From NCBI GenBank assembly GCA_964016885.1, contig OZ024749.1, positions 29,760,001-29,824,000 on the forward strand: a stretch of 64,000 bases of DNA. The letters run 5' to 3'. Positions 34,530-64,000 of this stretch are shown in pieces. The notes below the pieces were generated by a model that was not told the DNA's origin, made no database searches, and worked only from the letters and a program-made list of their open reading frames with translations. A program made the translations under genes and the position numbers. The stretch comes from Eledone cirrhosa. Lineage: Eukaryota. Within the stretch, counting starts at the first letter, position 1, and each line of letters starts with the position of its first letter.

Positions 34530-34720
34530 ATAAACGTAATGAAGACCTAAAAAATCGTCCTTTTTTATTATTCGCCGAGTTTAACTTTGCCTTTAATCCT
34601 TACTGGGGTCGATAAAATAAAGCACCAGTAATACATTGGCGTCAATTTAATCGACTACCCCCCCCCCCCCCCCAAAAAAAAAAATTGCTGGCCTAGTGCC
34701 TATAGTGGAAAATATTATTA
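34530..34720 (+). repeat. ~190-bp unit (CATAAACGTAATGAAGACC.. plus truncated SINE) preceding Tx1 array 1; second copy at 51878-52056
   Basis: The two copies align end to end with a few substitutions and indels. Confidence 0.8.
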
Positions 34721-34732
34721 TCTATCTATCTA

Positions 34733-37054
34733 TCGATGGTCTTCCTTACGAATTATATCTAGCTATGCCGGACTTGTTCCCCGATCTCCTCGAGGCGGTC
34801 TACTGCAACTGGCAACAGAACGGGAGAATTCCCTGTACTGTGACCAAGGGCGTAGTCACGCTAGTGAGGAAGGACGAGAACAAGGGGGACGAAATAAGTA
34901 ACTTCAGGCCCATAACACTGCTAAATACAGAGTTACAGATTTTGGCCAAGGTGCTAGCAAAGAGGTTGGCGCTTGTCGTGGGCAACCTGGTGGGAGATGC
35001 GCAGACATGCGCTATCCCGTCCAGGTCCATCCATGACAACCTCCACCTCATGCGATACATCATAGAGAGGGTTGGGAACGAACCCGGCTTTGGTGGGGCT
35101 CTGATCAACTTGGATCAATCTAAGGCGTTCGATAGGGTCGACCATGGTTACCTGGATGCGGTGCTAGCGGCGGCAGGCTTCGGACCCGTTTTCAGGGGCT
35201 GGATCACTGCTATGCACAGCAGCCGCATCTGCTCTAGGGTCAAGGTGAACGGCTACCTCTCGGAGCCGTTCAAAATCGCGCGGTCCATCCGACAAGGGTG
35301 CCCTCTCTCCTCCCTTCTGTATGTGTTGACTCTCGAGCCACTACTGCGGAAGTTGGAGTTGTTGCAGGGCATCCCTTTGGAACCGGGATTGCGGAAAGCG
35401 GTGTCGGCCTACGCCGATGACGTGACAGTAATGGTGTCGACGGCCTCCGAAATCGAGGCGGTCGGCACCTTACTGGAGGAGTACGAAAAGTTCACAGGGG
35501 CTAAGCTGAACCGGGACAAGTCGATCGGTTTGCAACTCGGCACGTGGAGGGGCAGACCGATGCCCTCCGATAGCGTCGTCGGACGCTGGAGGGAGGGCCC
35601 GGTGAAGTTGCTCGGGGTCTGGTTCGGACCGGACCTCCAGGTGGAGAAAAACTGGGCGGAGGTTACGAACAGGGTGTTTGCACTGACCCAGAAGTGGGCC
35701 AGTTGCAAACTATCCCTGAAAGGTCGGGCGGAGGTGGCGAACACCTACATAGCGTCCGTCATCTACTACCGCCTGACCGTAGTGCCCTGCCCAAGGGAAA
35801 CCCTCACCAAGATGGAGCGCGCGCTCTTCCAATTCCTTTGGAAGAGGCGGGCTCCTATGGTGAGGAGATCCATCTGCTGTCAACACCCTTCGAAAGGAGG
35901 GCTGGGGATGCCGTGGCTAATGATGCGTAAACACGCATTAAGGCTACGGCACCTCTACGTATTCCTCACCGGACAACCGGTGTGGGCCTCGTTTGTGAGA
36001 CGAACCTTTCCCAGACTCGTCTCACTCACCGAGCTGCAATCCTGGGTCAAGCAAAGACCGAGAAAACTGGGCGCCTGACACACTGAGTGTGCCCAGGCGC
36101 TCACCGCCCTCTGGCAGGCGGATCCGGTTATCAGTGGAGACTCCACCGCAACATTCTATAGAGGGCTGGTACGCAGCAGGTGCGACGACGCCCTCGGAGA
36201 AGCCCTAGACATGGAGGAGGACGAACTGGCCAGCCTGTTCGGTAGGACATTCAGCCCGGGACCTATGGACAACTTCCAGAAGTCCCTGGCCTGGCAGTGC
36301 TACCGAGGGGCTTTACCCGTTCGAGAAAGGCTCTACAGACACGGGCGCCCGGGTAGGGACCCCGCCAAAAAGATCTGTCCCAGATGCGTGTGCGACGAGG
36401 AAACCGTTGCACACGCATTAGTACACTGCTCGGGCGTAGCCGATCTGTGGGGCTATGTCGAACAACTTCTGTCAAGGGTGGGACCGATCCGGTTGACCAC
36501 CGAGTCTATTGTAATGATCAAGCCGCCTCCCCCCTTCAAAGATGAAGCAGAGGCGGTGTTTCTGTGCGTAATAGCCATGGCGAAAGAGGTTGTATGGTGG
36601 ACGCGTCTGAAAGGACTGAGGTCGGGCACCTTTCTCTCTGGCCAACAACTGGTCCGTTTCTTCCGATATCATTTCGGAAGAAGGATCAGGATGGAGAGAG
36701 AGGTGCTGCACCCCAGCCGTTTCTATGAAAGATGGGTGAAAGTGGCGAGAATGGCCCGTGTGAATGGGCCTTCACTCTACATCAGACTATAGGTGAGGAA
36801 GATGAAAGACCAAGGGAGCACCCCTTCTCTGTGCTCCTGAGGAGAAGGGTTGCACACTTTTTTCGGGGGTGTGTGCGACCCCCCAAGGCACCTCCTCTCT
36901 ATTGAGGATTTTGTTAAAATTTTTATTTTTTGTTATATCTTATTTTATTTTTATATTTTGTTATTGCCTTCTCCTTATTGAGGACGCCTTTTTGTGTAAA
37001 CTCCCCCCTTTGTACTTGTCCCACTTTTGATGCCCTAGTGGCAAATAAAAGAAA
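34733..37054 (+). mobile_element. 5'-truncated Tx1/L1-clade LINE, subfamily B; ORF2 broken by TGG>TGA at 36076
   Basis: RT motifs DQSKAFD, QGCPLS, YADD; near-identical to 53606-55925; flanked by (TATC)n. Confidence 0.9.
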
Positions 37055-37066
37055 TATATCTATCTT

Positions 37067-40000
37067 GATAGAGTAAGACACGCTTCACATCGGCTCCGCT
37101 ATTCCATCGGGATTTACCCTTACTATTGTAAGTACCGGATAAATTTTTCAGTGCAACACATTTGGAACACTAACCCCTGTTATTTAGGGAAACATTTTTG
37201 CATTTACCCCCTTTTAAGGGGGTAAAATAAATATCTATTTTTGCCGAAAAATTTCTTTCTTGGCAGCATGGCGGAAAAGATGGCAGACATGTCTGCCATT
37301 AGCTCTGCCACGCCCCCCAAGTCTGAAGAACAAAAAATAATTACAACAAAATTAGACAATGAAACAAACAAAAAAATGAAAAAACAAATGTTAAGGAAAA
37401 TGAGCAAACGGAAAACAAACAAACAGAAAATAATACAAATAACAACAGGGCAACTTTCGCCCAGAAAACAAAACAATCCATTACATACACACCAATTGAC
37501 CTAACTGCCGCCAGAGAAAAACTGGCCGAAGCAAAGAAACACATTGTTTTGGGGGAGAACGGAATGTTTTCCATTAACTCCCCCCCCCAGAATTCAAGAA
37601 AGAAAGAACAGAGAACACAGTTCTCTTCAGAACTATACTGAACCAGACAAGAAAGCCAGCACAGCCCAGCCAAATGGAAATAGAGTTAGTCCTAAAAGAC
37701 TATATGAAGAATATTCTCTTCATACGAAAGGACCGACTCTATGGCAGCATTTCGGTCCTAACAAGAGACAAGGAAACGGCGGAGAAGCTTTCCCTAAGCC
37801 CACTCTCATCGACAACATACAGCTTCTATCCCTCCTACATGGGTAGAAGAACACAGAGAGTAAAAGTAAAAACAATGCTGCCCACAATGGACTTCTGGTG
37901 GGCTATTGCTGGCTTCATAGACATGGGCGAAGACACAATGCTGTCAATGGGGAAGGCAACTGGAGATGCGTTCCTGGGAATGGGCCTCGACATACTAGTC
38001 CAAATGAGGCCCGAAAGAATAGCACAAATCCCGGATCGCATCTGGCTGGATGACCTTACCCCAATAGACATAATTGTAGAGGGGAGAAGACCAGCATGCT
38101 ATTTATGCATGGAAAGGGGACACGTTAAGGCTAACTGCCCGAAACGTATCCCCCAAAAAGGACTATTGCCCACACCCACCACAAACAGTACACCAACACC
38201 ACCTACCTCCAAAAATACACTAATACCACACACAGCAAACAAAATACAGACACCACCAACCACAAACACAACACAAACATCACCACCACCAGCACCAAAC
38301 ACAAGCACGACACAAAAATCACCACCACCAACCACAACACAAACATCACCACCACCATCACCAACCACAAGCACGACACAAACATTACCACCACCACCAC
38401 AAAACCCATTCCAAACAAATAATAAAAAAAACAGTAACAAATCTACCCCTCCCGCAAAAAAAAAAAAACAACCACACAACACGTCCCTCCCACCTAGCGC
38501 TGAAGAGTTTCCCCCAACTTCTGAAGAAGAAGGAGGAGAAGCCTTCAGACAAGTTAAAAGAAAAAAAAGAAAACACACACCCAGCACACCACAAATAACC
38601 CACACACATACACCAACTCCAATCAAAAACACCCCACCCTCAACAAACAAAAATAAATCTGCGCCTCCCCTCTCCGAAACATTGACAGCATCACAAAAAA
38701 AAGACGTTGCAATACACATATATAAATAAAGAAAACAAAAAACTGGTTAAATTAATAAACAATAACCCTATGGTGCAGACCGAAGGGCCAAACTTTATCT
38801 CAACAGAGAACTTCACCCATTTAAAAATGATAAAGGTCCCTCTGGACCTTTATCGTTCCTTAAAAGAACAATTTAGACGGGACGTGAGCCCCCCCTGTTT
38901 AAAACCGTTGAATCGCGTCCTCTTGAAAGATTTCCCCATAACCGCCCCTCTCCCTGACACAACTCCAAATACCCCAACCCCACCACACACGTGTACCCCC
39001 ACACCACCACAAAACATCCCTCCACCCAACACACCTGATGCCATGGAAATTACGCAACCCGGAGAGGTAAGTGCTTTTCTTTCTTCACTTTCAACACCAA
39101 AATAGATCAATTGAGAGTTGGCTGTTTGAACGCACGTGGCCTGGGCTCAGCTTGGAAGCAAGCAAAGCTTCTAAGTGACCTCAGGTCACAAAGTATAGAT
39201 GTGATGGTTGTTTGCGAGAGTCGGATCAGCAGCGTGAGACAGCTGGCGCCCGCCTTCGATGACTTTGAGATGCACGCATCTCTCTGTCAACCCGGAGGCG
39301 GGGGGGGGGGGGGAGTTGCCGTACTGCTGGATAAACGTCTGACTCTCGACGTACAGATTGTTCACTCGGACCCGGGGGGTCGATTACTGGTGCTGGACGT
39401 CGGAGGCGGTGAAGGCGGGGCTTTCAGACTGGTCGGTCTTTATGCTCCCTTCGGGGCGGAAAGAGCCGACTTCTTCCAACGTCTGGAGACTTTTCTAGGA
39501 ACGTCGCGTTACCTGCTTTTAGTGGGGGACTGGAATGGAATCCTAGATGCGCGTTGGGACTATGCAGGGGCATGTCCCGATAGAGGGGGGTGTAGCAGCC
39601 TCAAGGGGTTACTCGATCGATTCGACCTGGTCGATAGATTTCGACTAGATTGTCCAACTGCGCCAACCTGGACCTGGGCAAACCGCAGTGGACAATCTAG
39701 ATCGTACCTAGATAGGTTTTTGGTTAGGAGTAAGGATAGGGACGTATTTAGTTGTCCAGAACTGATCATGGTTGGCTATTCAGATCACAAATTAGTGACC
39801 TGCGTGGTCAACCTTGATAGAACGCATAGACAGGGTCCCGGTTACTGGAAGATGAACTTGTCCTTACCGACAAAGAAAGATTACAGAAACCGGATTAGTA
39901 GCTTAGTTAAGATGCGGTTGACGGGAGCGATCGTCAACAGTAGGTGGTGGATATCTCTAAAGAGAGAGATTAGAGTAAGTTCGATAGGTTACAGTAAGGA

Positions 40001-42763
40001 ACTAGCGGCGAATAGAAATAGGAGGGAAAGGGAGTTAACAGATAAACTAGAAGAGGCGATTAGGAGCGGAGACGTAGCCAGAGTGTTAGCGACGAGAACG
40101 GCATTGAGCCAGTTCTTTGACGCGAAGCACGAAGGCTGCGTTGTCCGAAGTAAAATACGTGCTTTAGGAAACGAGGGGACCAAAGCTGTTAGCTGGGCCC
40201 GCGTGACAGAAGCCAAGAGTGGGATTAAATCCACCATTCGGTCTTTGCGAGACCAGGATGGACGGGTGATCCTTGAACCTGAGCGAATGTGCGAGACCTT
40301 TCAAAGGCACTTTGCTCGACTGTTCGGAGGTGGCGGGGGGCCGGACGGGGATGTGGACTTCGGTCCATACCTCGACGGTCTACCGCGTCTTTCGAGCGGC
40401 GAAGCGGAGTGCTGCGAAAGGCCAATCACAGCCACTGAAATCGGGGAAGCGCTCAGCCAATGCAGCAGACGCAAATCCCCGGGTCTCGATGGTCTACCAT
40501 ACGAACTTTATTTAGCTATGCCGGTCTTGTTCTCCGAACTCCTCGAGGCTGTCTATTGCAACTGGCAACAGAACGGGAGAATTCCCTGTTCTGTGACCAA
40601 GGGCGTGGTCACGCTAGTGAGGAAGGACGAGAGCAAGGGGGACGACTTAAGTAACTTTAGGCCCATAACTCTGCTGAATGCAGAGTTACAGATTTTGGCC
40701 AAGGTGTTGGCGAAGAGGTTGGCGCTTGTGGTGGGTGGTTTGGTGGGAGACGCGCAGACATGCGCTATCCCGTCCAGGTCCATTCACGACAACCTCCACC
40801 TCATGCGATACATCATAGAGAGGGTTGGCTACGAACCCGGCTTTGGTGGGGCCCTGATCAACTTGGATCAATCTAAGGCGTTCGATAGGGTCGACCATGG
40901 TTACCTGGATGCGGTGCTAGCGGCGGCGGGCTTCGGACCCGTTTTCAAGGGCTGGATTTCTGCCATGCACAGTGGCAACATCTACTCTAGGATTAAAGTA
41001 AACGGCTACCTCTCGGAGCCGTTTCAAATCACCCGATCCATCAGACAGGGGTGCCCCCTCTCCTCCCTTCTGTACGTATTGACTCTCGAGCCACTGCTGC
41101 GGAAGTTGGAGTTGCTGCGGGGCATACCCCTGGAACCGGGATTGCACAAAGCGGTCTCGGCCTATGCCGACGACGTAACAGTAATGGTGGCGGACGCCTC
41201 GGAAATCGGGGCGATCGCCACCCTACTGGAGGAATACGAAAGGCTGACGGGGGCTAAGCTGAACCAGGACAAGTCAGTCGGTTTGCAACTCGGAACGTGG
41301 AGGGGCAAACCGATGCCGTTAGACGGTGTCGTCGGGCGGTGGACGGAGGGCTCGGTGAAGCTGCTCGGGGTCTGGTTCGGACCGGACCTCCAGGTGGAGA
41401 AGAATTGGGGCGAGGTGACGAGCAGGGTGTTTGCGCTGACCCAGAAGTGGGCCAAGTGCAAACTATCACTGAAAGGTCGGGCGGAGGTGACGAACGCTTA
41501 CATAGCGTCCGTCATCTACTACCGCCTGACCGTCGTGCCTTGCCCCAAGGAAAAGCTCACCATCATGGAACGCATGCTCTTCCAGTTCCTCTGGAAGAAG
41601 CGGCCTCCCATGGTGAGGAGATCCATCTGCTGCCAGCACCCTTCGAAAGGAGGGCTGGGTATGCCGTGGCTGTTGATGCGTAGGCACGCATTGAGGCTAC
41701 GGCATCTACAGGTATTCCTCAACGGTCAGCCGGTGTGGGCCCCGTTTGTGAGGCGCGCCTTCCCACAGCTCGTCTCGCTCACCGAACTGCAATCCTGGGT
41801 GAAGCAAAGACCGAGAAAACTGGGCAACTGGCACACTGAGTGTGCCCAGGCGCTCACGGCTATCTGGCAAGCGGACCCGACTGTCAGTGGAGAATCCACC
41901 TCGACATTCTATAGAGGGTTGGTGGCTAGCAGGGGCGACGACACCCTTGGAGAGTCGCTAGGCATGGAGGAGGACGAACTGGCCAGCCTGTTCGGTAGAA
42001 CTTTCGGCCCGGGACCCATGGACAACTTCCAGAGGTCCCTAGCCTGGCAGTGTTACCGGGGGGCTCTGCCCGTTCGAGAAAAGCTCTACAGACACGGGCG
42101 CCCGGGCAGGGATCCCGCGAAAAAGATCTGTCCCAGATGCGTGCGCGACGAGGAAACCGTTGCGCATGCACTGGTACACTGCCCGGGCGTTGCCGATCTG
42201 TGGGGCTACGTCGAACGACTGCTGTCGCGTGTGGCGCCGATTCGATTAACCGCCGAGTCTGTGGTGAACATCAAGCCGCCTCCTCCCTTCAGAAATGAAG
42301 CAGAGGCGGTCTTTCTGTGCGTAATAGCCATGATGAAAGAGGTTGTGTGGTGGACGCGCCTGAAAGGTCTGAGGTCGGGTGACTTTCTCTCCGGCCATCA
42401 CCTGGTTTACTTCTTCCGATACCACTTCGGAAGAAGAATCAGGATGGAGAGAGAAGTGCTTGGTCCCAGACAGTTTTATGAAAGGTGGGTGAAAGAAGCG
42501 AGAATGGCCCATGTAAATGGGCCTTCTCTCTACATTGTTCTGTAGGTGAAGAAGTGAAGAGGAAAGGGGGAGCGCCTCCTCTCTGGGCTTCCCCCGCGAA
42601 AAGAGTTGCACACTTTTCGGGGGTATGTGCAATCCCCAACACGCCCCCTCCCTTTTGAGGACTTTTTATTGTTATATTATTATTGTTATTCCTTTTTTCT
42701 TTACTCGATTTATGTAAACTCCCCCACTGTGTAAATGTCCCCTTCTTTTGTGCCCTCGTGGCA
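37067..42763 (+). mobile_element. Near full-length Tx1-clade LINE, subfamily A; ORF1 frameshifted, 3' end runs into (TA)n
   Basis: 5' UTR near-identical to the one starting at 60208; ORF1 pieces 37268-39105 with CYLCMERGHVKANC; intact ORF2. Confidence 0.92.
39102..42545 (+). CDS. LINE ORF2: APE endonuclease + RT + C-terminal CCHC zinc finger; no AUG at the homologous start (ATA)
   Basis: LNARG, GDWN, YLDR, SDH (APE); KSPGLDG, FRPITLLN, KAFD, QGCPLS, YADD (RT); CPRC..ETVAHALVHC. PGYWKMN and RSIHDN are typical of Tx1/L1. Confidence 0.9.
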   Translation: MDQLRVGCLNARGLGSAWKQAKLLSDLRSQSIDVMVVCESRISSVRQLAPAFDDFEMHASLCQPGGGGGGGVAVLLDKRLTLDVQIVHSDPGGRLLVLDVGGGEGGAFRLVGLYAPFGAERADFFQRLETFLGTSRYLLLVGDWNGILDARWDYAGACPDRGGCSSLKGLLDRFDLVDRFRLDCPTAPTWTWANRSGQSRSYLDRFLVRSKDRDVFSCPELIMVGYSDHKLVTCVVNLDRTHRQGPGYWKMNLSLPTKKDYRNRISSLVKMRLTGAIVNSRWWISLKREIRVSSIGYSKELAANRNRRERELTDKLEEAIRSGDVARVLATRTALSQFFDAKHEGCVVRSKIRALGNEGTKAVSWARVTEAKSGIKSTIRSLRDQDGRVILEPERMCETFQRHFARLFGGGGGPDGDVDFGPYLDGLPRLSSGEAECCERPITATEIGEALSQCSRRKSPGLDGLPYELYLAMPVLFSELLEAVYCNWQQNGRIPCSVTKGVVTLVRKDESKGDDLSNFRPITLLNAELQILAKVLAKRLALVVGGLVGDAQTCAIPSRSIHDNLHLMRYIIERVGYEPGFGGALINLDQSKAFDRVDHGYLDAVLAAAGFGPVFKGWISAMHSGNIYSRIKVNGYLSEPFQITRSIRQGCPLSSLLYVLTLEPLLRKLELLRGIPLEPGLHKAVSAYADDVTVMVADASEIGAIATLLEEYERLTGAKLNQDKSVGLQLGTWRGKPMPLDGVVGRWTEGSVKLLGVWFGPDLQVEKNWGEVTSRVFALTQKWAKCKLSLKGRAEVTNAYIASVIYYRLTVVPCPKEKLTIMERMLFQFLWKKRPPMVRRSICCQHPSKGGLGMPWLLMRRHALRLRHLQVFLNGQPVWAPFVRRAFPQLVSLTELQSWVKQRPRKLGNWHTECAQALTAIWQADPTVSGESTSTFYRGLVASRGDDTLGESLGMEEDELASLFGRTFGPGPMDNFQRSLAWQCYRGALPVREKLYRHGRPGRDPAKKICPRCVRDEETVAHALVHCPGVADLWGYVERLLSRVAPIRLTAESVVNIKPPPPFRNEAEAVFLCVIAMMKEVVWWTRLKGLRSGDFLSGHHLVYFFRYHFGRRIRMEREVLGPRQFYERWVKEARMAHVNGPSLYIVL

Positions 42764-42790
42764 TATATATATATGTATATATATATATGC

Positions 42791-42821
<31 letters not shown>

Positions 42822-42827
42822 TATGTA

Positions 42828-42932
<105 letters not shown>

Positions 42933-43039
42933 GAGATGAATGGATATTTATAATAGTATGTCTCATTGAAAATACACCCTCTCCGTATTCATCTACCCAG
43001 ACAATCTATTAACGGTTGATATGTAGTGTGTGAAACTAC

Positions 43040-45051: not shown

Positions 45052-45139
<88 letters not shown>

Positions 45140-46160: not shown

Positions 46161-46290
46161 CACCACCACCACCACCTTCATCGCTATCTTCTCGTTCTGT
46201 AATTTTGTTGTTTTATTGTTCTTCTCTTCCTGAAATTTCCAAAACATCTGTTGTTTCTCATCACTGCATTTCTCAATTTCTACATCGCTT

Positions 46291-46860: not shown

Positions 46861-46985
46861 TCTCATAATAATACCCTGTAATAATTTATTTGTATATATA
46901 TATAAGTATTGAAGTTTCCGTTGAAAATTGAAAAAGTCATAGGAGTGAAGAGTGCTCTATGTAAGTTACAGAGCTAAATTTAATG

Positions 46986-49132
<2,147 letters not shown>

Positions 49133-51104: not shown

Positions 51105-51147
<43 letters not shown>

Positions 51148-51265
51148 CTATCCCCCCTCTCTCTCGCTATATATATATAGGTACGTTATTCCGGGTTGAA
51201 TCGGAGGTAACCACAGTAAGTAAGGTACTCAATGCATTGCAGAGTATAAACGTTTTAATATAGAT

Positions 51266-51318
51266 GAGATTCTACAGGACTAGAACTGTTTCATTCTTTA
51301 GAAATCATCAGGAATCTC
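51266..51318 (-). ncRNA. Compact hammerhead; inverted twin at 51333-51381 (+)
   Basis: Stem I GAGATTC/GAATCTC, CTGATGA, stem II T-TTC-TAAA-GAA-T, GAAA, stem III ACAG/CTGT, GUA cleavage triplet; ~59-bp perfect inverted repeat 51258-51391. Confidence 0.75.
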
Positions 51319-51384
51319 CTGTGATTCCAGGTGATTCCTGATGATTTCTAAAGAATGAAACAGTTCTAGTCCTGTAGAATCTCA

Positions 51385-51446
<62 letters not shown>

Positions 51447-51611
51447 GCTCAGCCGTCGGGGTCTTGATTCTTTTCCTATATATAACTATTTATCTGTAAT
51501 CTATCAATCTATTTAGCTGCCTGCCCATCTGTCTCTATGTCCGTCTGTCTGCCTATCTATCTCTCTATCTCCCATCCATCCATCTATCTGTCTGTCTGTT
51601 TATCTATCTAT

Positions 51612-51879
51612 CCTGGCACACCGAGTGTGCCCAGGCGCTCACGGCTCTCTGGCAGGCGGACCCGGCTGTCAGTGGAGAATCCACCTTGTCATTCTATAGA
51701 GGGCTGGTGGTTAGCAGGTGCGACGACGCCCTCGGAGAAGCCCTAGGCATGGAGGAAGACGAACTGGCCAACCTGTTCGTTAGGACATTCAGCCCGGGAC
51801 CCATGGATAACTTCCAGAGGTCCCTGGCCTGGCAGTGCTACAGAAGGTCTCTGCCCGTTCGAGAAAGGCTCTACAGACA
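51612..51879 (+). mobile_element. Internal Tx1 ORF2 fragment (subfamily D) after degenerate (TATC)n, 3'-truncated
   Basis: WHTECAQAL..MEEDELANLF..ERLYRH homology. Confidence 0.85.
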
Positions 51880-52062
51880 TAAACGTAATGAAGACCTAAA
51901 AAATCGTCCTTTTTATTATTCGCCGAGTTTAACTTTGCCTTTAATCCTTACGGGGGTCGATAAAATAAAGCACCAGTAATACACTGGCGTCAATTTAATA
52001 CACTTTCCCCTCCCCCAAATTGCTGGCCTAGTGCCTATAGTGGAAAACATTATTATCTATCT

Positions 52063-55000
52063 ACACCCACTCAACGACAAACACCCCAACCCCACAACAC
52101 ACCGATGCCCCTTCACTTCCACAAACCACCACCCCACCCAACAACCCATCCCCAACCAGCATGGAAATTGAGCGGCCCGTTTCCCGGGACGCAGAGAGGT
52201 AAGTGCCTTTTCTCTTTACCACCAACATGGCTGTGCTAAGAGTAGGGTGTCTAAATGCGCGTGGCCTGGGCTCGTCTTGGAAGCAAGCAATGCTTCTAAA
52301 TGACCTCAGGTCACAATCTATAAATGTGATGGTTATCTGCGAGGCCCGGATCAGCAGCATGCGACAGCTAGCCCCCACCTTTGACGACTTTGAGATGCAC
52401 GCATCTCTCTGTCAGCCCGGAGGTGGGGGTGGGGTTGTCGTTCTGCTGCAAAAACATATGGGCCTTGCAACACAGATAGTTCACTTGGACCCAGGGGGTC
52501 GACTGGTGGTGCTGGACCTTGGCAGTGGTGAAGGTAGAGCCCTTAGGCTGATAGCCGCATATGCCCCTTTTGGGACAGAGCGGCCCGACTTTTTCCAGCG
52601 TCTGGAGTCTTTTCTAGGGACGTCCCGTTCCCTGCTTTTAGTGGGGGATTGGAATGGTATCCTGGATGCACGTTGGGACTATGCAGGGGCATGTCCCGAT
52701 AGAGAGGGGTGCAACAGCCTCAAGGGGTTACTCGGCCGATTTGACCTGGCCGATAGATTTCGACTAGATTTTCCGACGGTGCCAACCTGGTCTTGGTCAA
52801 ATCGCAGCGGATCATCTAGATCGTACCTAGATAGATTTTTAGTTAGAAATAAGGACAGGGACTTTTTAAGTTGTCCAGAAATGCTCATGGTTGGCTATTC
52901 AGACCACAAGTTGGTGACCTGCATGGTCAACCTTGATAGAACGCATAGACAGGGCCCCGGTTACTGGAAGCTCAACTTGTCCTTGCCGGCAAGTAGAGCC
53001 TACAGGAATCGGATTAGTACTTTAGTTAAGGAACGGTTGACTGGAGCGATCGTCAACAGCAGGTGGTGGGTATCTCTAAAGAGAGAGATTAGAGTAGTCT
53101 CGATTGAATTTAGTAAGGTTCTAGCTGCGGATAGGAATAGGAAGGAAAGGGAGCTAATAGATAGAGTAGAAGAGGCAATTAGAAGCGGCGACGTGGCCAG
53201 AGTGCTAGCGTCGAGAACGGCTTTGAGCCAGTTTTTCGACGCGAAGCACGAAGGCTGCATTGTCCGAAGTAAAATACGTGCTCTAGGGAACGAGGGGGCC
53301 AAAGCTGTTAGCTGGGCCCGCGTGACAGAGGCCAACAGTGGAACTAAATCCACCATCGGGTCTTTGCGAGACCTGGATGGACGGGCGATTCTTGAGCCTA
53401 AGCAGATGTGTGAGGCCTTTCAAAGGCACTTTGCACGACTGTTCGGGAGGGGCGGGGAGCCGGTTGGAAACGTGGACTTCGGTCCATACCTCGACGGCCT
53501 GCCGCGCCTCTCGGACAGGGAGGCGAAGTCTTGCGAGGAGCCGATTTCGGCCGCTGAGATAGAGGACGTGCTGGGCCAATGCGGCAAACGCAAATCCCCG
53601 GGTCTCGATGGTCTTCCTTACGAATTATATCTAGCTATGCCGGACTTGTTCCCCGATCTCCTCGAGGCGGTCTACTGCAACTGGCAACAGAACGGGAGAA
53701 TTCCCTGTACTGTGACCAAAGGCGTAGTCACGCTAGTGAGGAAGGACGAGAACAAGGGGGACGAAATAAGTAACTTCAGGCCCATAACTCTGCTAAATAC
53801 AGAGTTACAGATTTTGACCAAGGTGCTAGCAAAGAGGTTGGCGCTTGTCGTGTGCAACCTGGTGGGAGATGCGCAGACATGCGCTATCCCGTCCAGGTCC
53901 ATCCATGACAACCTCCACCTCATGCGATACATCATAGAGAGGGTTGGGAACGAACCCGGCTTTGGTGGGGCTCTGATCAACTTGGATCAATCTAAGGCGT
54001 TCGATAGGGTCGACCATGGTTACCTGGATGCGGTGCTAGCGGCGGCAGGCTTCGGACCCGTTTTCAGGGGCTGGATCACTGCTATGCACAGCAGCCGCAT
54101 CTGCTCTAGGGTCAAGGTGAACGGCTACCTCTCGGAGCCGTTCAAAATCGCGCGGTCCATCCGACAAGGGTGCCCTCTCTCCTCCCTTCTGTATGTGTTG
54201 ACTCTCGAGCCACTACTTCGGAAGTTGGAGTTGTTGCAGGGCATCCCTTTGGAACCGGGATTGCGGAAAGCGGTGTCAGCCTACGCCGATGATGTGACAG
54301 TAATGGTGTCGACGGCCTCCGAAATCGAGGCGGTCGGCACCTTACTGGAGGAGTACGAAAAGTTCACAGGGGCTAAGCTGAACCGGGACAAGTCGATCGG
54401 TTTGCAACTCGGCACGTGGAGGGGCAGACCGATGCCCTCCGATGGCGTCGTCGGACGCTGGACGGAGGGCCCGGTGAAGTTGCTCGGGGTCTGGTTCGGA
54501 CCGGACCTCCAGGTGGAGAAAAACTGGGCGGAGGTTACGAACAGGGTGTTTGCACTGACCCAGAAGTGGGCCAGTTGCAAACTATCCCTGAAAGGTCGGG
54601 CGGAGGTGGCGAACACTTATATAGCGTCCGTCATCTACTACCGCCTGACCGTAGTGCCCTGCCCAAGGGAAACCCTCACCAAGATGGAGCGCGCGCTCTT
54701 CCAATTCCTTTGGAAGGGGCGGGCTCCTATGGTGAGGAGATCCATCTGCTGTCAACACCCTTCGAAAGGAGGGCTGGGGGTGCCGTGGCTAATGATGCGT
54801 AAACACGCATTAAGGCTACGGCACCTCTACGTATTCCTCACCGGACAACCGGTGTGGGCCTCGTTTGTGAGACGAACCTTTCCCAGACTCGTCTCACTCA
54901 CCGAGCTGCAATCCTGGGTCAAGCAAAGACCGAGAAAACTGGGCGCCTGGCACACTGAGTGTGCCCAGGCGCTCACCGCCCTCTGGCAGGCGGATCCGGT

Positions 55001-55925
55001 TATCAGTGGAGACTCCACCGCAACATTCTATAGAGGGCTGGTACGCAGCAGGTGCGACGACGCCCTCGGAGAAGCCCTAGACACGGAGGAGGACGAACTG
55101 GCCAGCCTGTTCGGTAGGACATTCAGCCCGGGACCTATGGACAACTTCCAGAAGTCCCTGGCCTGGCAGTGCTACCGAGGGGCTTTACCCGTTCGAGAAA
55201 GGCTCTACAGACACGGGCGCCCGGGTAGGGACCCCGCCAAAAAGATCTGTCCCAGATGCGTGTGCGACGAGGAAACCGTTGCACACGCATTGGTACACTG
55301 CTCGGGCGTAGCCGATCTGTGGGGCTATGTCGAACAACTGCTGTCATGGGTGGGACCGATCCGGTTGACCACCGAGTCTATTGTAATGATCAAGCCGCCT
55401 CCCCCCTTCAAAGATGAAGCAGAGGCGGTGTTTCTGTGCGTAATAGCCATGGCGAAAGAGATTGTATGGTGGACGCGTCTGAAAGGACTGAGGTCAGGCA
55501 CCTTTCTCTCTGGCCAACAACTGGTCCGTTTCTTCCGATATCATTTCGGAAGAAGGATCAGGATGGAGAGAGAGGTGCTGCACCCCAGTCGTTTTTATGA
55601 AAGGTGGGTGAAAGTGGCGAGAATGGCCCGTGTGAATGGGCCTTCTCTTTACATAAGCCTGTAGGTGGAAAAGAGGAAGGAACGAGGGAGCACCCCCTCT
55701 CTGTGCTCCTGAGGAAAAGGGTTGCACACTTTTTTCGGGGGTGTGTGCGACCCCCCAAGGCGCCTCCTCTCTATTGAGGATTTTGTTAAAAATTTTATTT
55801 TTTGTTATATCTTATTTTATTTTTATATTTTGTTATTGCCTCCTCCTTATTGAGGACGCCTTTTTGTGTAAACTCCCCCCTTGTACTTGTCCCACTTTTG
55901 ATGCCCTAGTGGCAAATAAAAGAAA
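52063..55925 (+). mobile_element. Tx1-clade LINE subfamily B, 5'-truncated near the end of ORF1
   Basis: ORF1 tail ..SMEIERPVSRDAER*, complete ORF2, 3' UTR, AATAAA, (TATC)n. Confidence 0.92.
52227..55664 (+). CDS. Intact LINE ORF2 (APE-RT-zinc finger), ATG start
   Basis: Same motif set as 39102-42545; uninterrupted. Confidence 0.92.
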   Translation: MAVLRVGCLNARGLGSSWKQAMLLNDLRSQSINVMVICEARISSMRQLAPTFDDFEMHASLCQPGGGGGVVVLLQKHMGLATQIVHLDPGGRLVVLDLGSGEGRALRLIAAYAPFGTERPDFFQRLESFLGTSRSLLLVGDWNGILDARWDYAGACPDREGCNSLKGLLGRFDLADRFRLDFPTVPTWSWSNRSGSSRSYLDRFLVRNKDRDFLSCPEMLMVGYSDHKLVTCMVNLDRTHRQGPGYWKLNLSLPASRAYRNRISTLVKERLTGAIVNSRWWVSLKREIRVVSIEFSKVLAADRNRKERELIDRVEEAIRSGDVARVLASRTALSQFFDAKHEGCIVRSKIRALGNEGAKAVSWARVTEANSGTKSTIGSLRDLDGRAILEPKQMCEAFQRHFARLFGRGGEPVGNVDFGPYLDGLPRLSDREAKSCEEPISAAEIEDVLGQCGKRKSPGLDGLPYELYLAMPDLFPDLLEAVYCNWQQNGRIPCTVTKGVVTLVRKDENKGDEISNFRPITLLNTELQILTKVLAKRLALVVCNLVGDAQTCAIPSRSIHDNLHLMRYIIERVGNEPGFGGALINLDQSKAFDRVDHGYLDAVLAAAGFGPVFRGWITAMHSSRICSRVKVNGYLSEPFKIARSIRQGCPLSSLLYVLTLEPLLRKLELLQGIPLEPGLRKAVSAYADDVTVMVSTASEIEAVGTLLEEYEKFTGAKLNRDKSIGLQLGTWRGRPMPSDGVVGRWTEGPVKLLGVWFGPDLQVEKNWAEVTNRVFALTQKWASCKLSLKGRAEVANTYIASVIYYRLTVVPCPRETLTKMERALFQFLWKGRAPMVRRSICCQHPSKGGLGVPWLMMRKHALRLRHLYVFLTGQPVWASFVRRTFPRLVSLTELQSWVKQRPRKLGAWHTECAQALTALWQADPVISGDSTATFYRGLVRSRCDDALGEALDTEEDELASLFGRTFSPGPMDNFQKSLAWQCYRGALPVRERLYRHGRPGRDPAKKICPRCVCDEETVAHALVHCSGVADLWGYVEQLLSWVGPIRLTTESIVMIKPPPPFKDEAEAVFLCVIAMAKEIVWWTRLKGLRSGTFLSGQQLVRFFRYHFGRRIRMEREVLHPSRFYERWVKVARMARVNGPSLYISL

Positions 55926-55948
55926 CTTATCTATCTATCTATCTATCT

Positions 55949-56771
55949 GAAGCCCTAGGCATGGAGGAGGACGAACTGGCCAACCTGTTCGGTAGGACAT
56001 TCAGCCCGGGACCCATGGATAACTTCCAGAGGTCCCTGGCCTGGCAGTGCTACAGAAGGTCTCTGCCCGTCGAGAAAAGCTCTACAGACACGGGCGCCCG
56101 GGCAGGGATCCCGCGAAAAAGATCTGCCCCAGATGCGTGCGCGACGAGGAAACCGTTGCGCATGCACTGGTACACTGCCCGGGCGTTGCCGATCTGTGGG
56201 GCTACGTCGAACGACTGCTGTCGCGTGTGGCACCGATTCGATTAACCGCCGAGTCTGTGGTGAACATCAAGCCGCCTCCTCCCTTCAGAAATGAAGCAGA
56301 GGCGGTCTTTCTGTGCGTAATAGCCATGATGAAAGAGGTTGTGTGGTGGACGCGCCTGAAAGGTCTGAGGTCGGGTGACTTTCTCTCCGGCCATCACCTG
56401 GTTTACTTCTTCCGATACCACTTCGGAAGAAGGATCGGGATGGAGAGAGAAGTGCTTGGCCCCAGACAGTTTTATGAAAGGTGGGTGAAAGAAGCGAGAA
56501 TGGCTCGTGTAAATGGGCCTTCTCTCTACATTGTTCTGTAGGTGAAGAAGTGAAGAGGAAAGGGGGAGCGCCTCCTCTCTGGGCTTCCACCGGGAAAAGA
56601 GTTGCACACTTTTCGGGGGTATGTGCAATCCCCAACACGCCCCCTCCCTTTTGAGGACTTTTTATTGTTATATTATTATTGTTATTCCTTTTTTCTTTAC
56701 TCGATTTATGTAAACTCCCCCACTGTGTAAATGTCCCCTTCTTTTGTGCCCTCGTGGCAAATAAATAGAAA
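55949..56771 (+). mobile_element. Chimeric 5'-truncated Tx1 copy (D-type first ~120 bp, A-type remainder)
   Basis: 55949-56070 matches 56795-56916; from 56071 it matches 42075-42763; 1-bp frameshift at the switch. Confidence 0.85.
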
Positions 56772-56794
56772 TTTATCTATCTATCTATCTATCT

Positions 56795-57754
<960 letters not shown>

Positions 57755-60158
57755 GATAGTAGGATGTACACAATTTAGCTGGTAAGTTTCTGTCAATTTA
57801 TTTACGAAAAAAACAGAAATTCTTGTTTAAAAAAACACATTGTTCTGTAGATTAACCCCCACGCTGAATTGTCAACTGGGTGACAATATCATTTTTCGCC
57901 CCCACAGGGGCAGAAATTTTATTTGAAAAACTGTTCAAAAATTTTTTAATATTTTGCCATTAACAATGGCTAGCGTACAAGGAACGCTAGCGAACGTTGA
58001 GAAAGAAAGAAGAAAGAAAGAAATAGATTTTAACGTTGCTACAAGCTCTGCCTGTATTGTTGTCACTATGGAAGTGAATAATGACAACAAAGTTTTGTTT
58101 CGCAAAGAAAGTGAAGTATGCAACAAAAACAACATTGAACCACACAGCTTACAACAGCCACAAAAAACAACAGAAAATAAAACAATTGACACAACTACAA
58201 ACGGAAAAACTGACAACCACAATAACAACAAACATAACTTTTGCAGAGATAGTCATAAACAAAATTGGCTACAAGGATATAGATATCACTAATGTAAGAC
58301 AAATGTTGTCTGAGGAGAAGAAATTCATCATTTTCGAACAGGGTGGATTTAAAATAAACTCACGCCCGGAAATCAGAATTGAAACCCTTAGAAGGACAGT
58401 AACCTTCAAAACTATTTCAAATGAAACAAAAAAACCCCAAAAAACCGGCATTCCTCAGTCAAGGGGAAATTGAAGCAACCTTGAAGGAGATATTGTCAAA
58501 CATAGACTTTATGCAGAGGGCCAAACAGTATGGGAGTATTACGGTGCTCCTCAAAAGCGAGGCCCTCGCACACAAATATTCCGTGACACCGATAATGTCA
58601 ACAAAAATACACCTTTTTCCCTACATACTTAGGAAAAAGGACTAAAAAAATTAAAATTACTAACATACCACCAAATATTAACACTTGGTGGATCCTGGCA
58701 GGATTCTTGGAAGAAGGAGAGGATGTTATCAACCAGACACACGTGGTCTGGTACGAATTTGGAGATTCTGTTTCAAATGAGGCCGGAGAGAATTTCCAAA
58801 ATACCCGAAAGAGTGCTGGTCGACAACAACAGCCATATCAACATTTCGACCAATGGAAGAAGACCACACTGCTTCCGATGCAACAGTACATCGCATTTAA
58901 AGGCCTCCTGCCCTCTACAGACAAACTCAAAAACACAATCCAAAAGCCACCACTACCACCACCACCACCACCACCACCACCACCATCACAACCACCACCA
59001 CCACAACAACAACAACAACAACACACAAAACAAGCAAACACACCAAAACAAACAGCCACTCAACCAACAACAGCAGACCCCCCACCGAAGAACACAGTCC
59101 CACACGAAAACGCCATCACCACACAGCATACCCCTACCGCAAACTCCTGATGACGAATCATCGTCAGACGAGGCTACTTCTTCATCCCCAAGTGAAGATG
59201 AAGGATAACCTCGAAAATCAAAACAACAAAAGAGAGGCACCGCAAAGCCACAAAAACACCAATCACCAACACCAACACACAACCACCGACACAAACAACA
59301 ACACAAACAACACCACAATCACCCCCACCCCTACCAGCAAAATAAACACCAACACCATCCCAAACACAAGCACCCACCATAAAAAGAAAACTCCCGGACG
59401 AACAACAAACTAAAACAACACAACAAAAACACAAACAATAATACCCATACATCAACACCAACAACAAGAATTTGATGGAGGACATCTCCAAAAACCCCAA
59501 GGTGAAGACGGAGGGTAAACATTTCGTTAAAGCAGAATCGTCTCCACACCTCAGACTGATAAGGATTTCCATGGAAACATTTAGTGGACTGAAAAGTGAA
59601 TTTTCGCAGGACGTGAGCAACCCCTGTCAAAAACCCATTAACCGCGTCCTATTAAAATGTTTCCCCACCCCAGCCAACACCCCCACCAGCACCCAAATGG
59701 AGATTGAATAACCCGATCTCCAGGAAACGAAAAGGTAAGTGCATCTTAGAGAAAAACAAAACAGAAACAGCACTAGTAGCCAAGATAGAGGAGGCGCTTA
59801 GGAGTGGCGATGCAGCTAGAGTGCTGGCAACGAGAACGGCACTGGACCAGTTCTTCGACGCGAAACACGAAGGCTGCGTGGTCAGAAGTAAATCACGTGT
59901 TCTAGGAAACGAGGGAGAAAAAGCTGTTAGCTGGGCCCGAGTGGCAGGGGCGAAAAGTGGCAACATGTCCACGATTCGGTCTTTGAAAGACCAAAACGGA
60001 TGCGTGCTACTTGACCCCAAGCGGATGTGAGTGACCTTTCAGCGGCACTTTGCGCAATTGTTCGAGCAGAGTGGCGGTGGGTCGAACGAGAGAATGGACT
60101 TCGGCATGTGTCTTTGTTTTGTCTCCTTTACTTGGGCACTCTTGTGGCAAATAAAGAA

Positions 60159-60159
<1 letters not shown>
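57755..60159 (+). mobile_element. Divergent Tx1 subfamily C: frameshifted ORF1, ~350-bp ORF2 remnant, short 3' end
   Basis: ORF1 pieces with QYGSITVLL, QMRPERI, CFRCNSTSHLKASC; ORF2 piece IEEALRSGDAARVLATR..; GTGGCAAATAAAGAAA-(TCTA)n end. Confidence 0.85.
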
Positions 60160-60207
<48 letters not shown>

Positions 60208-60408
60208 GATAGAGTAAGACACGCTTCGCATCGGCTCCGCTATTCCATCGGGATTTACCCTTACTATTGTAAGTACCGGATAAATTTTTTAGTGCAACAC
60301 ATTTGGAACACTAACCCCTGTTATTTAGGGAAACATTTTTGCATTTACCCCCTTTTTAGGGGGTAAAATAAATATCTATTTTTGCCGAAAAATTTCTTTC
60401 TTGGCAGC

Positions 60409-62244
60409 ATGGCGGAAAAGATGGCAGACATGTCTGCCATTAGCTCTGCCACGCCCCCCAAGTCTGAAGAACAAAAAATAATTACAACAAAATTAGACAT
60501 TGAAACAAACAAACAAAATGAAAAAACAAATGTTAAGGAAAATGAGCAAACAGAAAACAAACAAACAGAAAATAATACAAATAACGACAGGGCAACTTTC
60601 GCCCAGAAAACAAAGCAATCCATTACATACACACCAATTGACCTAACTGCCGCCAGAGAAAAACTGGCCGAAGCAAAGAAACATATTGTTTTGGGGGAGA
60701 ACGGAATGTTTTCCATTAACTCCCCCCCAGAATTCAAGAAAGCCAGAGCAGAAAACACAGTTATATACAGAACTATACTAAACCAGTCAAGAAAGCCAGC
60801 ACAGCCCAGCCAAATGGAAATAGAGTTAGTCCTAAAAGACTATATGAAGAATATTCTCTTCATACGAAAGGACCGACTCTATGGCAGCATTTCGGTCCTA
60901 ACAAGAGACAAAGAAACGGCGGTTCAGCTTTCCCTAAGCCCACTCTCGTCGACAACATATAGCTTCTATCCCTCCTACATGGGTAGAAGAACACAGAGGA
61001 TAAAAGTAAAAACAATGCTGCCCACAATGGACTTCTGGTGGGCTATTGCTGGCTTCATTGATATGGGCGAAGACACTATGCTGTCAATGGGGAAGGCAAC
61101 TGGAGATGCGTTCCTGGGAATGGGCCTCGACATACTAGTCCAAATGAGGCCCGAAAGAATAGCACAAATCCCGGATCGCATCTGGCTGGATGACCTTACC
61201 CCAATAGACATAATTGTAGAGGGGAGAAGACCAGCATGCTATTTATGCATGGAAAGGGGACACGTTAAGGCTAACTGCCCGAAACGTATCCCCCAAAAAG
61301 GACTATTGCCCACACCCACCACAAACAGTACACCAGCACCACCCACCTCCAAAAATACACTAATACCACACACAGCAAACAAAATACAGACACCACCAAC
61401 CACAAACACAACACAAACATCACCACCACCAGCACCAAACACAAGCACGACACAAAAATCACCACCACCAACCACAACACAAACATCACCACCACCATTA
61501 CCAACCACAAGCACGACACAAACATTACCACCACCACCACCACAAAACCCATTCCAAACAAATAATAAAAAAAACAGTAACAAATCTACCCCTCCCGCAA
61601 AAAAAAAACAACCACACAACACGTCCCTCCCACCTAGCGCTGAAGAGTTTCCCCCAACTTCTGAAGAAGAAGGAGGAGAAGCCTTCAGACAAGTTAAAAG
61701 AAAAAAAAGAAAACACACACCCAGCACACCACAAATAACCCACACACAAACACCAACTCCAATCAAAAACACCCAACCCTCAACAAACAAAAATAAATCT
61801 GCGCCTCCCCTCTCCGAAACATTGACAGCATCACAAAAAAAGACGTTGCAATACACATATATAAATAAAGAAAACAAAAAACTGGTTAAATTAATAAACA
61901 ATAACCCTATGGTGCAGACCGAAGGGCCAAACTTTATCTCAACAGAGAACTTCACCCATTTAAAAATGATAAAGGTCCCTCTGGACCTTTATCGTTCCTT
62001 AAAAGAACAATTTAGACGGGACGTGAGCCCCCCCTGTTTAAAACCGTTGAATCGCGTCCTCTTGAAAGATTTCCCCATAACCGCCCCTCTCCCTGACACA
62101 ACTCCAAATACCCCAACCCCACCACACACGTGTACCCCCACACCACCACAAAACATCCCTCCACCCAACACACCTGATGCCATGGAAATTACGCAACCCG
62201 GAGAGGTAAGTGCTTTTCTTTCTTCACTTTCAACACCAAAATAG
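60409..62244 (+). CDS. Intact LINE ORF1 (~611 aa; CCHC zinc knuckle, Pro/Thr-rich linker, basic tract)
   Basis: CYLCMERGHVKANC, KRKKRKH; uninterrupted from MAEKM. Confidence 0.88.
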   Translation: MAEKMADMSAISSATPPKSEEQKIITTKLDIETNKQNEKTNVKENEQTENKQTENNTNNDRATFAQKTKQSITYTPIDLTAAREKLAEAKKHIVLGENGMFSINSPPEFKKARAENTVIYRTILNQSRKPAQPSQMEIELVLKDYMKNILFIRKDRLYGSISVLTRDKETAVQLSLSPLSSTTYSFYPSYMGRRTQRIKVKTMLPTMDFWWAIAGFIDMGEDTMLSMGKATGDAFLGMGLDILVQMRPERIAQIPDRIWLDDLTPIDIIVEGRRPACYLCMERGHVKANCPKRIPQKGLLPTPTTNSTPAPPTSKNTLIPHTANKIQTPPTTNTTQTSPPPAPNTSTTQKSPPPTTTQTSPPPLPTTSTTQTLPPPPPQNPFQTNNKKNSNKSTPPAKKKQPHNTSLPPSAEEFPPTSEEEGGEAFRQVKRKKRKHTPSTPQITHTQTPTPIKNTQPSTNKNKSAPPLSETLTASQKKTLQYTYINKENKKLVKLINNNPMVQTEGPNFISTENFTHLKMIKVPLDLYRSLKEQFRRDVSPPCLKPLNRVLLKDFPITAPLPDTTPNTPTPPHTCTPTPPQNIPPPNTPDAMEITQPGEVSAFLSSLSTPK

Positions 62245-64000
62245 ATCAATTGAGAGTTGGCTGTTTGAACGCGCGTGGCCTGAGCTCAGCTTGGAAGCAA
62301 GCAAAGCTTCTAAGTGACCTCAGGTCACAAAGTATAGATGTGATGGTTGTTTGCGAGAGTCGGATCAGCAGCGTGAGACAGCTGGCGCCCGCCTTCGATG
62401 ACTTTGAGATGCACGCATCTCTCTGTCAACCCGGAGGCGGGGGGGGAGTTGCCGTACTGCTGGATAAACGTCTGACTCTCGACGTACAGATTGTTCACTC
62501 GGACCCGGGGGGTCGATTACTGGTGCTGGACGTCGGAGGCGGTGAAGGCGGGGCTTTCAGACTGGTCGGTCTTTATGCTCCCTTCGGGGCGGAGAGAGCC
62601 GACTTCTTCCAACGTCTGGAGACTTTTCTAGGAACGTCGCGTTCCCTGCTTTTAGTGGGGGACTGGAATGGAATCCTAGATGCGCGTTGGGACTATGCAG
62701 GGGCATGTCCCGATAGAGGGGGGTGTAGCAGCCTCAAGGGGTTACTCGATCGATTCGACCTGGTCGATAGATTTCGACTAGATTGTCCAACTGCGCCAAC
62801 CTGGACCTGGGCAAACCGCAGTGGACAATCTAGATCGTACCTAGATAGGTTTTTGGTTAGGAGTAAGGATAGGGACGTATTTAGTTGTCCAGAACTGATC
62901 ATGGTTGGCTATTCAGATCACAAATTAGTGACCTGCGTGGTCAACCTTGATAGAACGCATAGACAGGGACCCGGTTACTGGAAGATGAACTTGTCCTTAC
63001 CGACAAAGAAAGATTACAGAAACCGGATTAGTAGCTTAGTTAAGATGCGGTTGACGGGAGCGATCGTCAACAGTAGGTGGTGGATATCTCTAAAGAGAGA
63101 GATTAGAGTAAGTTCGATAGGTTACAGTAAGGAACTAGCGGCGAATAGAAATAGGAGGGAAAGGGAGTTAACAGATAAACTAGAAGAGGCGATTAGGAGC
63201 GGAGACGTAGCCAGAGTGTTAGCAACGAGAACGGCATTGAGCCAGTTCTTTGACGCGAAGCACGAAGGCTGCGTTGTCCGAAGTAAAATACGTGCTTTAG
63301 GAAACGAGGGGACCAAAGCTGTTAGCTGGGCCCGCGTGACAGAAGCCAAGAGTGGGATTAAATCCACCATTCGGTCTTTGCGAGACCAGGATGGACGGGT
63401 GATCCTTGAACCTGAGCGAATGTGCGAGACCTTTCAAAGGCACTTTGCTCGACTGTTCGGAGGTGGCGGGGGGCCGGACGGGGATGTGGACTTCGGTCCA
63501 TACCTCGACGGTCTACCGCGTCTTTCGAGCGGCGAAGCGGAGTGCTGCGAAGGGCCAATCACAGCCACTGAAATCGGGGAAGCGCTCAGCCAATGCAGCA
63601 GACGCAAATCCCCGGGTCTCGATGGTCTACCATACGAACTTTATTTAGCTATGCCGGTCTTGTTCTCCGAACTCCTCGAGGCTGTCTATTGCAACTGGCA
63701 ACAGAACGGGAGAATTCCCTGTTCTGTGACCAAGGGCGTGGTCACGCTAGTGAGGAAGGACGAGAGCAAGGGGGACGACTTAAGTAACTTTAGGCCCATA
63801 ACTCTGCTGAATGCAGAGTTACAGATTTTGGCCAAGGTGTTGGCGAAGAGGTTGGCGCTTGTGGTGGGTGGTTTGGTGGGAGACGCGCAGACATGCGCTA
63901 TCCCGTCCAGGTCCATTCACGACAACCTCCACCTCATGCGATACATCATAGAGAGGGTTGGCTACGAACCCGGCTTTGGTGGGGCCCTGATCAACTTGGA
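62241..64000 (+). CDS. LINE ORF2, 5' part (APE + start of RT), partial
   Basis: Matches ~39102-40868, with a 6-bp shorter poly-G tract; also starts ATA GAT CAA TTG. Confidence 0.85.
   Translation, partial: MDQLRVGCLNARGLSSAWKQAKLLSDLRSQSIDVMVVCESRISSVRQLAPAFDDFEMHASLCQPGGGGGVAVLLDKRLTLDVQIVHSDPGGRLLVLDVGGGEGGAFRLVGLYAPFGAERADFFQRLETFLGTSRSLLLVGDWNGILDARWDYAGACPDRGGCSSLKGLLDRFDLVDRFRLDCPTAPTWTWANRSGQSRSYLDRFLVRSKDRDVFSCPELIMVGYSDHKLVTCVVNLDRTHRQGPGYWKMNLSLPTKKDYRNRISSLVKMRLTGAIVNSRWWISLKREIRVSSIGYSKELAANRNRRERELTDKLEEAIRSGDVARVLATRTALSQFFDAKHEGCVVRSKIRALGNEGTKAVSWARVTEAKSGIKSTIRSLRDQDGRVILEPERMCETFQRHFARLFGGGGGPDGDVDFGPYLDGLPRLSSGEAECCEGPITATEIGEALSQCSRRKSPGLDGLPYELYLAMPVLFSELLEAVYCNWQQNGRIPCSVTKGVVTLVRKDESKGDDLSNFRPITLLNAELQILAKVLAKRLALVVGGLVGDAQTCAIPSRSIHDNLHLMRYIIERVGYEPGFGGALINL

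Follow-up and report, generated by a model that had tools for sequence, protein, structure and literature searches.

In a stretch of 64,000 nucleotides from Eledone cirrhosa (assembly GCA_964016885.1, contig OZ024749.1, positions 29,760,001-29,824,000; hereafter the window, in whose positions all coordinates are given), two arrays of long interspersed elements (LINEs) were found at 34733-42762 and 51612-65908, the second extending 1.9 kb beyond the window end. Self-comparison and comparison with full-length copies elsewhere in the genome confirmed eight copies on one strand, as proposed in an earlier note on this DNA. We consider it probable that these are LINEs with two open reading frames (ORFs) and an apurinic/apyrimidinic endonuclease (APE), likely of the Tx1 clade, that join the genome at TAT(C>A)TAT sites, chiefly within TATC repeats, and show target-site duplications (TSDs) of 8-22 bp and no poly(A), and that the endonuclease sets this target and the elements stack on it.

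The target preference is evident from the 3' ends of family A, counted in the genome of 3.0 Gb via a 26-base 3'-end word that occurs 1,959 times. Two variable bases and then TATCTAT (NN-TATCTAT) follow 1,514 of these ends (77%), and NN-TATATAT follows 187 (9.5%). In a background of 20 evenly spread 10-kb regions (200 kb) TATCTAT occurs 121 times (0.03% of positions) and TATATAT 12,319 times (3.1%), giving an 824-fold per-site preference for TATCTAT (bootstrap over regions 435-1441), a figure to be read with the small background sample in mind and with arrays generating TATC sites of their own. For the junction itself 99 A copies were fetched, 39 best matches and 60 unselected copies in listed order on contig 1, where three places already included were passed over. 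All 60 unselected copies show TAT at +1 to +3 and T at +5; at +4, 46 have C and 14 have A. The A at +2 in 60/60 copies does not agree with a (TC)n, (TTC)n, (TTCC)n or (TTTC)n target, and some copies adjoining (TC)n still start with TAT. In family B, TATCTAT follows 27/30 best-match ends and TATATAT none of the 30; in family C TATCTATC precedes about 21 of 30 heads, as counted by eye. Measured against the threshold for a target-specific Tx1 family, use of one sequence type in more than 20% of flanks (PMC4494074; this and the other cited papers are drawn on in extracts), a dominant flank is present in A (77%) and B (27/30) and in two sister families described below, G (25/30 TGTCT) and F (61% TATATC).

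A short motif, TAT(C>A)TAT, with TATC repeats strongly favoured, describes the target better, and the GATA-repeat specificity of the earlier note stands as a preference and not as strict use of (TATC)n. The statement that no copy had entered (TA)n has to be dropped, as the window copy at 37067-42762 abuts (TA)n/(TC)n and (TA)n is a genuine minor target of family A: among 40 further copies chosen for TATATAT at the 3' end, 33 also have TATATAT just upstream and 26 show a duplication.

The flanking TATC is target, and there is no obligatory TATC tail, because the TSDs start at TAT, the repeat is present on both sides and copies in (TA)n carry no TATC tail. A TSD of at least 8 nt starting at TAT was found in 44/60 unselected A copies and one of at least 12 nt in 39/60, compared with a mean of 15 and a maximum of 24 in 1,000 shuffles. 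Non-periodic TSDs of 8-22 nt (median 15) are present in 19/99 copies, against a shuffled mean of 1.45; the 19 include one segmental duplicate pair and two copies from one array. Among 50 truncated A copies, 31 have TATCTATC at the 3' side and 27 of these have it upstream too, while none of the seven with (TA)4 at the 3' side has TATCTATC upstream. Copies in unique sites likewise carry no TATC tail, and poly(A) was found at the 3' end of 0/139 copies. Target preference, preservation of the target by duplication and array growth, all put forward in the earlier note, are supported by these counts and TSDs.

The terminal dinucleotide before TAT tracks the element tree, with 13 changes compared with 26.5 after shuffling and 0/200 shuffles as low (53 rows). 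As this dinucleotide is inherited along the tree, the element RNA reaches at least that far. An AATAAA lies only 7-8 bases upstream, which makes it likely that the RNA is cleaved inside the downstream repeat and that its end could base-pair to the nicked strand; for SART1Bm and R1Bm, priming by such RNA-target annealing was proposed (PMC7265360). In the mechanism that we favour, the endonuclease likely nicks the GATA strand of the target and reverse transcription is likely primed by the read-through RNA end pairing with the nicked target. Each insertion would keep the target on both sides, and for this reason later copies of any subfamily could stack head-to-tail.

Stacking is common. Of the unselected copies, 29/60 lie no more than a few hundred bases from another member of the lineage (two recognised by the 3'-end motif alone, several from shared arrays), against a lineage cover of 1.4% in random DNA, and all 38 neighbours of unselected copies found by BLAST lie on the same strand. 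Array members belong to different subfamilies and have different truncation points. Two variants of family A, A1 and A2, are 99% identical in the reverse transcriptase (RT) and 89% in the endonuclease, which identifies them as recombinants and indicates that 5' modules are exchanged. The layout of the two arrays is as follows (SINE, short interspersed element; all features on the + strand).

34529-34734 (+), target locus 1: flank and end of a short dispersed SINE-like repeat, closing in four TATC units
34733-37056 (+), family A copy, 5'-truncated within the RT, ending AGAAA+TA, 98.5% identical to full-length A copies
37057-37066 (+), inter-copy spacer of two TATC units
37067-42762 (+), full-length family B copy, ORF1 broken
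51500-51612 (+), degenerate TATC/TGTC/TCCA tetranucleotide run, last three units TATC
51612-51879 (+), internal fragment from an A-related subfamily that has lost its 3' part
51878-52063 (+), target locus 2: duplicate of 34529-34728, older (89% identity) and closing in two TATC units
52064-55927 (+), family A1 copy, 5'-truncated in ORF1, ORF2 intact at 52227-55664, ending AGAAA+CT, 99.5% identical to A1
55928-55948 (+), five TATC units, the beginning of a ~143-nt duplication of 56774-56916
55949-56773 (+), short chimera: the downstream neighbour supplies the first ~122 nt, family B the remainder
56774-56794 (+), five TATC units
56795-57650 (+), A-related subfamily copy, 5'-truncated, 93% identical to A
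57651-57754 (+), about 26 TATC units
57755-60161 (+), family C copy keeping its 5' head; ORF1 broken, large internal deletions in ORF2
60162-60207 (+), eleven TATC units
60208-64000, on to ~65908 (+), full-length family B copy, ORF1 intact at 60409-62244, ORF2 frame from 62178

The A copy at 34733-37056 contains a single in-frame stop (36076-36078). The B copy at 37067-42762 keeps its ORF2 frame open at 39039-42545 (APE, RT and zf-RVT) and is without its last ~14 nt, and the B copy at 60208 ends beyond the window in nine TATC units. As the earlier note had it, TATC directly precedes all eight of the 5' junctions, with only two to three units at 37067, 51612 and 52063. The eight are not, however, all independent. 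The stretch 55928-56070 is a duplicate of ~143 nt of 56774-56916, in which (TATC)5 and 122 nt repeat the start of the 56795 copy; the chimera fits a B insertion with its 5' end joined by homology, or an unequal exchange, and since the breakpoint is common with 56795 under either origin, 55949 is not an independent TATC junction. Furthermore, one target locus is present twice, as the flanks 34529-34728 and 51878-52063: these are reciprocal best genomic matches and 89% identical, while the A copies within them come from different sub-lineages, which suggests that one duplicated site was hit twice by separate A copies. Three full-length heads may also carry TATC of their own, having target-like bases at the 5' end. 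The five 3' ends (37040, 55911, 56756, 57633 and 60146) were read correctly, each being followed by two bases and then TATC with no poly(A), as is a sixth 1.9 kb beyond the window. Mobilisation of the SINE-like repeat to TATC was considered and rejected, as most other best SINE matches stop short of the TATC end.

The lineage is not uniformly GATA-specific, as two sister families use other targets. Family F was found via 20 loci from a distant-protein search, not picked by flank, most of which belong to this one other family. Its 3' end occurs 521 times, followed by TATATC in 317 cases (61%) and by TATCTA in 106. The terminal dinucleotide GT is found in none of the 100 TATATC matches listed and in about nine of ten among the 100 TATCTA matches listed (by eye), and the family was divided into F-T, the TATATC group of 317 copies, and F-GT, the sister with terminal GT and TATCTA. 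F-T insertions lie in a degenerate CT-rich minisatellite, and since the same conserved sequence follows beyond it in 12/19 fetched copies, the minisatellite is part of another dispersed repeat. This host repeat is abundant, carries the CT-rich minisatellite internally and has a conserved end (3' flanks L326-L344). Family G comprises 205 copies genome-wide and uses (TGTC)n. Among its first 30 ends, 25 are followed by NN-TGTCT, three by TATCTGT and two by AGTAT; of the first 100 listed, 42 have a same-strand G copy no further than 7.1 kb away, at a spacing of mostly 5.5-5.8 kb, and the longest array has nine in a row on contig 3. A further head type follows (TGTC)n and starts with the complement of the repeat (L317, L350), possibly representing a second TGTC-targeting family.

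The sister families are close relatives with RT DNA identities of 89-94% overall (A vs G 91%, F-T vs F-GT 94%), and the endonuclease genes of families using the three targets are 82-90% identical. Three partitions agree on the split of F-T and F-GT from A, B and G. Because users of TATC stand on both sides of this split, the simplest account on these unrooted trees would have TATC as the ancestral target with two shifts, TATC to TGTC and TATC to TATATC.

Regarding the proteins, ORF2 contains the Pfam domains Exo_endo_phos, RVT_1 and, just under the cut-off, zf-RVT. ORF1 (60409-62244) encodes 611 amino acids with a CCHC knuckle at 61237 (CX2CX4HX4C), and such an ORF1 upstream of ORF2 is usual for Tx1. 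It has no Pfam match at E<=0.001, and its Atlas neighbours are CCHC and ZCCHC3-like clusters (0.89-0.91). The elements thus show the features of APE-type non-long-terminal-repeat elements of the L1 group, namely APE, RT and C-terminal zinc finger together with 5' truncation, a fixed 3' end and TSDs. The ORF2 of family B, unlike that of family A, lacks an ATG ahead of the endonuclease; it overlaps the ORF1 end in the -1 frame (39039-39120, 62178-62250), suggesting translation by frameshift or independent of AUG. A short intron fusing the two ORFs of family B was rejected, as it does not restore the frame (checked by hand). A splice-donor-like GTAAGT is kept across diverged families at the ORF1/ORF2 junction (39066-39075, 52198-52205, 59736-59742) and also occurs near the 5' end, at about +35 to +45 of several heads.

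The catalytic motifs of the endonuclease are intact. Its model (pLDDT 92.5) has human L1-EN as the best structural match, with a TM score of 0.8 (PDB 1vyb, 7n8s), and residues 193-198 form a hairpin loop aligned with L1 193-202, which in L1 inserts into the minor groove (PMC8565326). Residue 194 is N in 4/4 G copies and R in A and B. Residue 66, adjoining the position of L1 Lys70, is R in 16/16 F-T copies and G in the TATC groups. R194N in G and G66R in F-T are candidates for the small endonuclease changes that may have shifted the target.

In A, B, C, F-T and G the first bases of the 5' head are nearly the reverse complement of the family target, and the head folds back onto the repeat upstream of it, as in the window, where 37059-37064 is the reverse complement of the following head (37067-37072); two head clusters show no fold-back. 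All 13 head-bearing F-T copies have the same target-like minisatellite unit 5' of the head, even where the 3' flank differs, and head and unit form a 10-bp hairpin matching the new target. The heads being homologous, the fold-back counts as one ancestral trait plus one matching change, with its chance level uncontrolled. The 5' untranslated regions of eight head types (37067-37300, 57755-57990; L338, L347) have more stable folds than shuffled sequences (z -2.0 to -6.4), and hairpins are common to them although their sequences have diverged. A known 5' ribozyme was rejected: the window heads have no Rfam ribozyme match at gathering score, weak unrelated matches at 36900-37500 being the only ones, and the hairpin of the head closes immediately against the repeat upstream, which differs from the P1 layout of the hepatitis delta virus ribozyme.

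Several observations weigh against the mechanism favoured here. Neither word follows 258/1,959 family-A ends (13%), 16/60 unselected copies have no TSD of at least 8 nt (two of them scored at an internal break), and a single inverted neighbour was found among the 39 best-match copies. In the endonuclease, G and F-T each differ from all TATC groups at 12 positions, residue 194 also differs in two or three F-GT copies (a comparison based on three degraded copies), and each difference arose once and is confounded with ancestry, on family trees that are unrooted. In human L1, loop grafts altered the nicking pattern and single point changes did not (PMC1950540). We regard as tentative, and rather unlikely, an extended account in which the series TATC to TGTC and TATC to TATATC reflects a few endonuclease-loop changes together with target sequence carried by the RNA in 3' read-through and 5' head, so that target choice would be partly RNA-inherited and reprogrammable. 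Unlikely, too, is an RNA-guided memory of the target: nicking of TA-rich or pyrimidine-purine repeats would be loose, bases carried from the source locus would select the site, and a family would keep the target of its master. The inherited terminal dinucleotide, which splits F into its TATATC and TATCTA groups, speaks for this, as do the constant unit 5' of the F-T heads, the fold-back of five head types on their own target and the annealing proposed for SART1Bm and R1Bm (PMC7265360). At non-repeat sites, however, the 3' flank is local target sequence already at +1, and TAT(n)T is all that these flanks share; the A copies in (TA)n are drawn from all main dinucleotide sub-lineages with no TA-memory lineage evident; in G, a change is fixed in the loop expected to govern specificity; and two head clusters lack the fold-back.

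Largely refuted and very improbable is that the elements themselves encode TATC as a tail added at random sites, with the arrays arising from tandem duplication or recombination. One window junction is indeed a duplicate, A1 and A2 are recombinants, and three of the 31 truncated copies with TATC at the 3' side have neither repeat upstream. Yet the other side of the same 31, with 27 flanked on both sides, the non-periodic TSDs starting at TAT also at non-repeat sites, the copies in (TA)n or unique sites and the differing subfamilies and truncation points within arrays all contradict it; the earlier note had named such a tail as grounds for giving up its proposal. Hardly credible is a weakly specific insertion with the pattern produced by survival bias or by repair at fragile repeats, i.e., endonuclease-independent insertion. 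Microsatellite-rich DNA is gene-poor and some copies have no TSD, as this would predict, but the base-exact register (TAT at +1 in 60/60), the single orientation and the TSDs disagree with it, as do the avoidance of the 100-fold commoner TATATAT and the family-specific targets in young copies (98-99.7% identical).

In terms of classification, the lineage is likely Tx1. The nearest named protein is from Argonauta hians (62-67%), and ORF2 gives bit scores of 293-316 to YTX2/TX1-labelled proteins compared with at most 169 to human L1. The RT groups with YTX2/TX1-labelled proteins against RTE- and CR1-like outgroups from the same genome, in a tree with a long-branch warning that includes neither L1-proper nor curated Tx1. 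Families of the P0002 type were not found in the genome (best 41%), and a metagenome scan with the relative P0006 found no relative.

Tx1 families at (TC)n, (TTC)n, (TTCC)n, (TTTC)n and in other transposons are known, as are tandem insertions (PMC4494074, PMC4640811), described around a TSD for SINEU-3 (PMC1950540, PMC4494074). Kibi at (TC)n, Koshi at (TTC)n and the crocodilian Tx1 at (TTCC)n/(TTTC)n are also Tx1-type and microsatellite-preferring, tetranucleotides included (PMC4494074). In contrast to these, the Eledone elements have a mollusc host and target TATC, TGTC and TATATC, not pure pyrimidine runs, and their RT forms its own branch apart from vertebrate Tx1-labelled proteins, Kibi and Koshi being compared by description only. 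Tx1L from Xenopus and Tx1-Mar target another transposon like F-T in its minisatellite (PMC1950540, PMC4494074), but the sister of F-T, at 94% RT DNA identity, targets a microsatellite. SART1Bm/TRAS and R1Bm of the R1 clade likewise combine an APE endonuclease with a repeat target and a proposed RNA-target annealing; SART1Bm keeps a poly(A) tail and targets telomeric repeats, whereas the Eledone copies are dispersed and have no poly(A) (PMC7265360). Human L1 shares the endonuclease fold and has a short consensus target with TSDs, but primes on poly(A) at TTTT/AA, while the Eledone copies have a precise 3' end (PMC8565326).

For O. vulgaris, 13 recently active L1-Tx1 families with 421 young near-full insertions were reported (PMC13282606, PMC8967140), and the Eledone families may be among such cephalopod repeat-library entries. 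As far as the extracts go, cephalopod and mollusc repeat papers count L1-Tx1 or other LINEs and give no targets (PMC13282606, PMC8967140, PMC9115989, PMC10294476); the word "target" is absent from PMC13282606, and the extracts of this paper and of PMC8967140 mention no insertion preference. In the open-access full-text literature searched, no TATC/GATA- or TGTC/GACA-targeting Tx1 lineage was found; Repbase and Dfam lie outside this search and a prior description is possible. The type of mechanism is known, and the TATC, TGTC and TATATC targets with their recent three-way radiation are apparently not described.

APE-type target specificity was studied mostly across very distant enzymes (L1, Tx1L and R1Bm), and loop grafts gave partial answers. 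Three targets among close families, with hundreds of dated insertions each, could allow specificity to be traced either to some dozen residues or to the ends of the RNA, with a bearing on the engineering of site-directed LINE integration. The lineage, which covers 1.4% of the random 200 kb, multiplies TATC sites on insertion and swaps modules inside its arrays, and GATA/GACA microsatellite markers in such genomes would often be retrotransposon junctions.

Apart from the arrays, the window holds many copies of the short SINE-like repeat, a 2-kb inverted repeat between the two arrays (46986-49022, 91% self-match), a near-perfect palindrome of 134 bp (51258-51391) and larger tandem repeats at 14841-16931 and 31279-31837, with periods of 79-200 and 11/110. 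Long ORFs that by eye resemble Penelope-type elements (RT and a GIY-YIG-like end) are located at 3243-5735 (-), 9423-10091 (-) and 26105-28658 (+). The first of these has no Pfam match at E<=0.001, and parts occur again, also inverted, around 6.8-12.7 kb.

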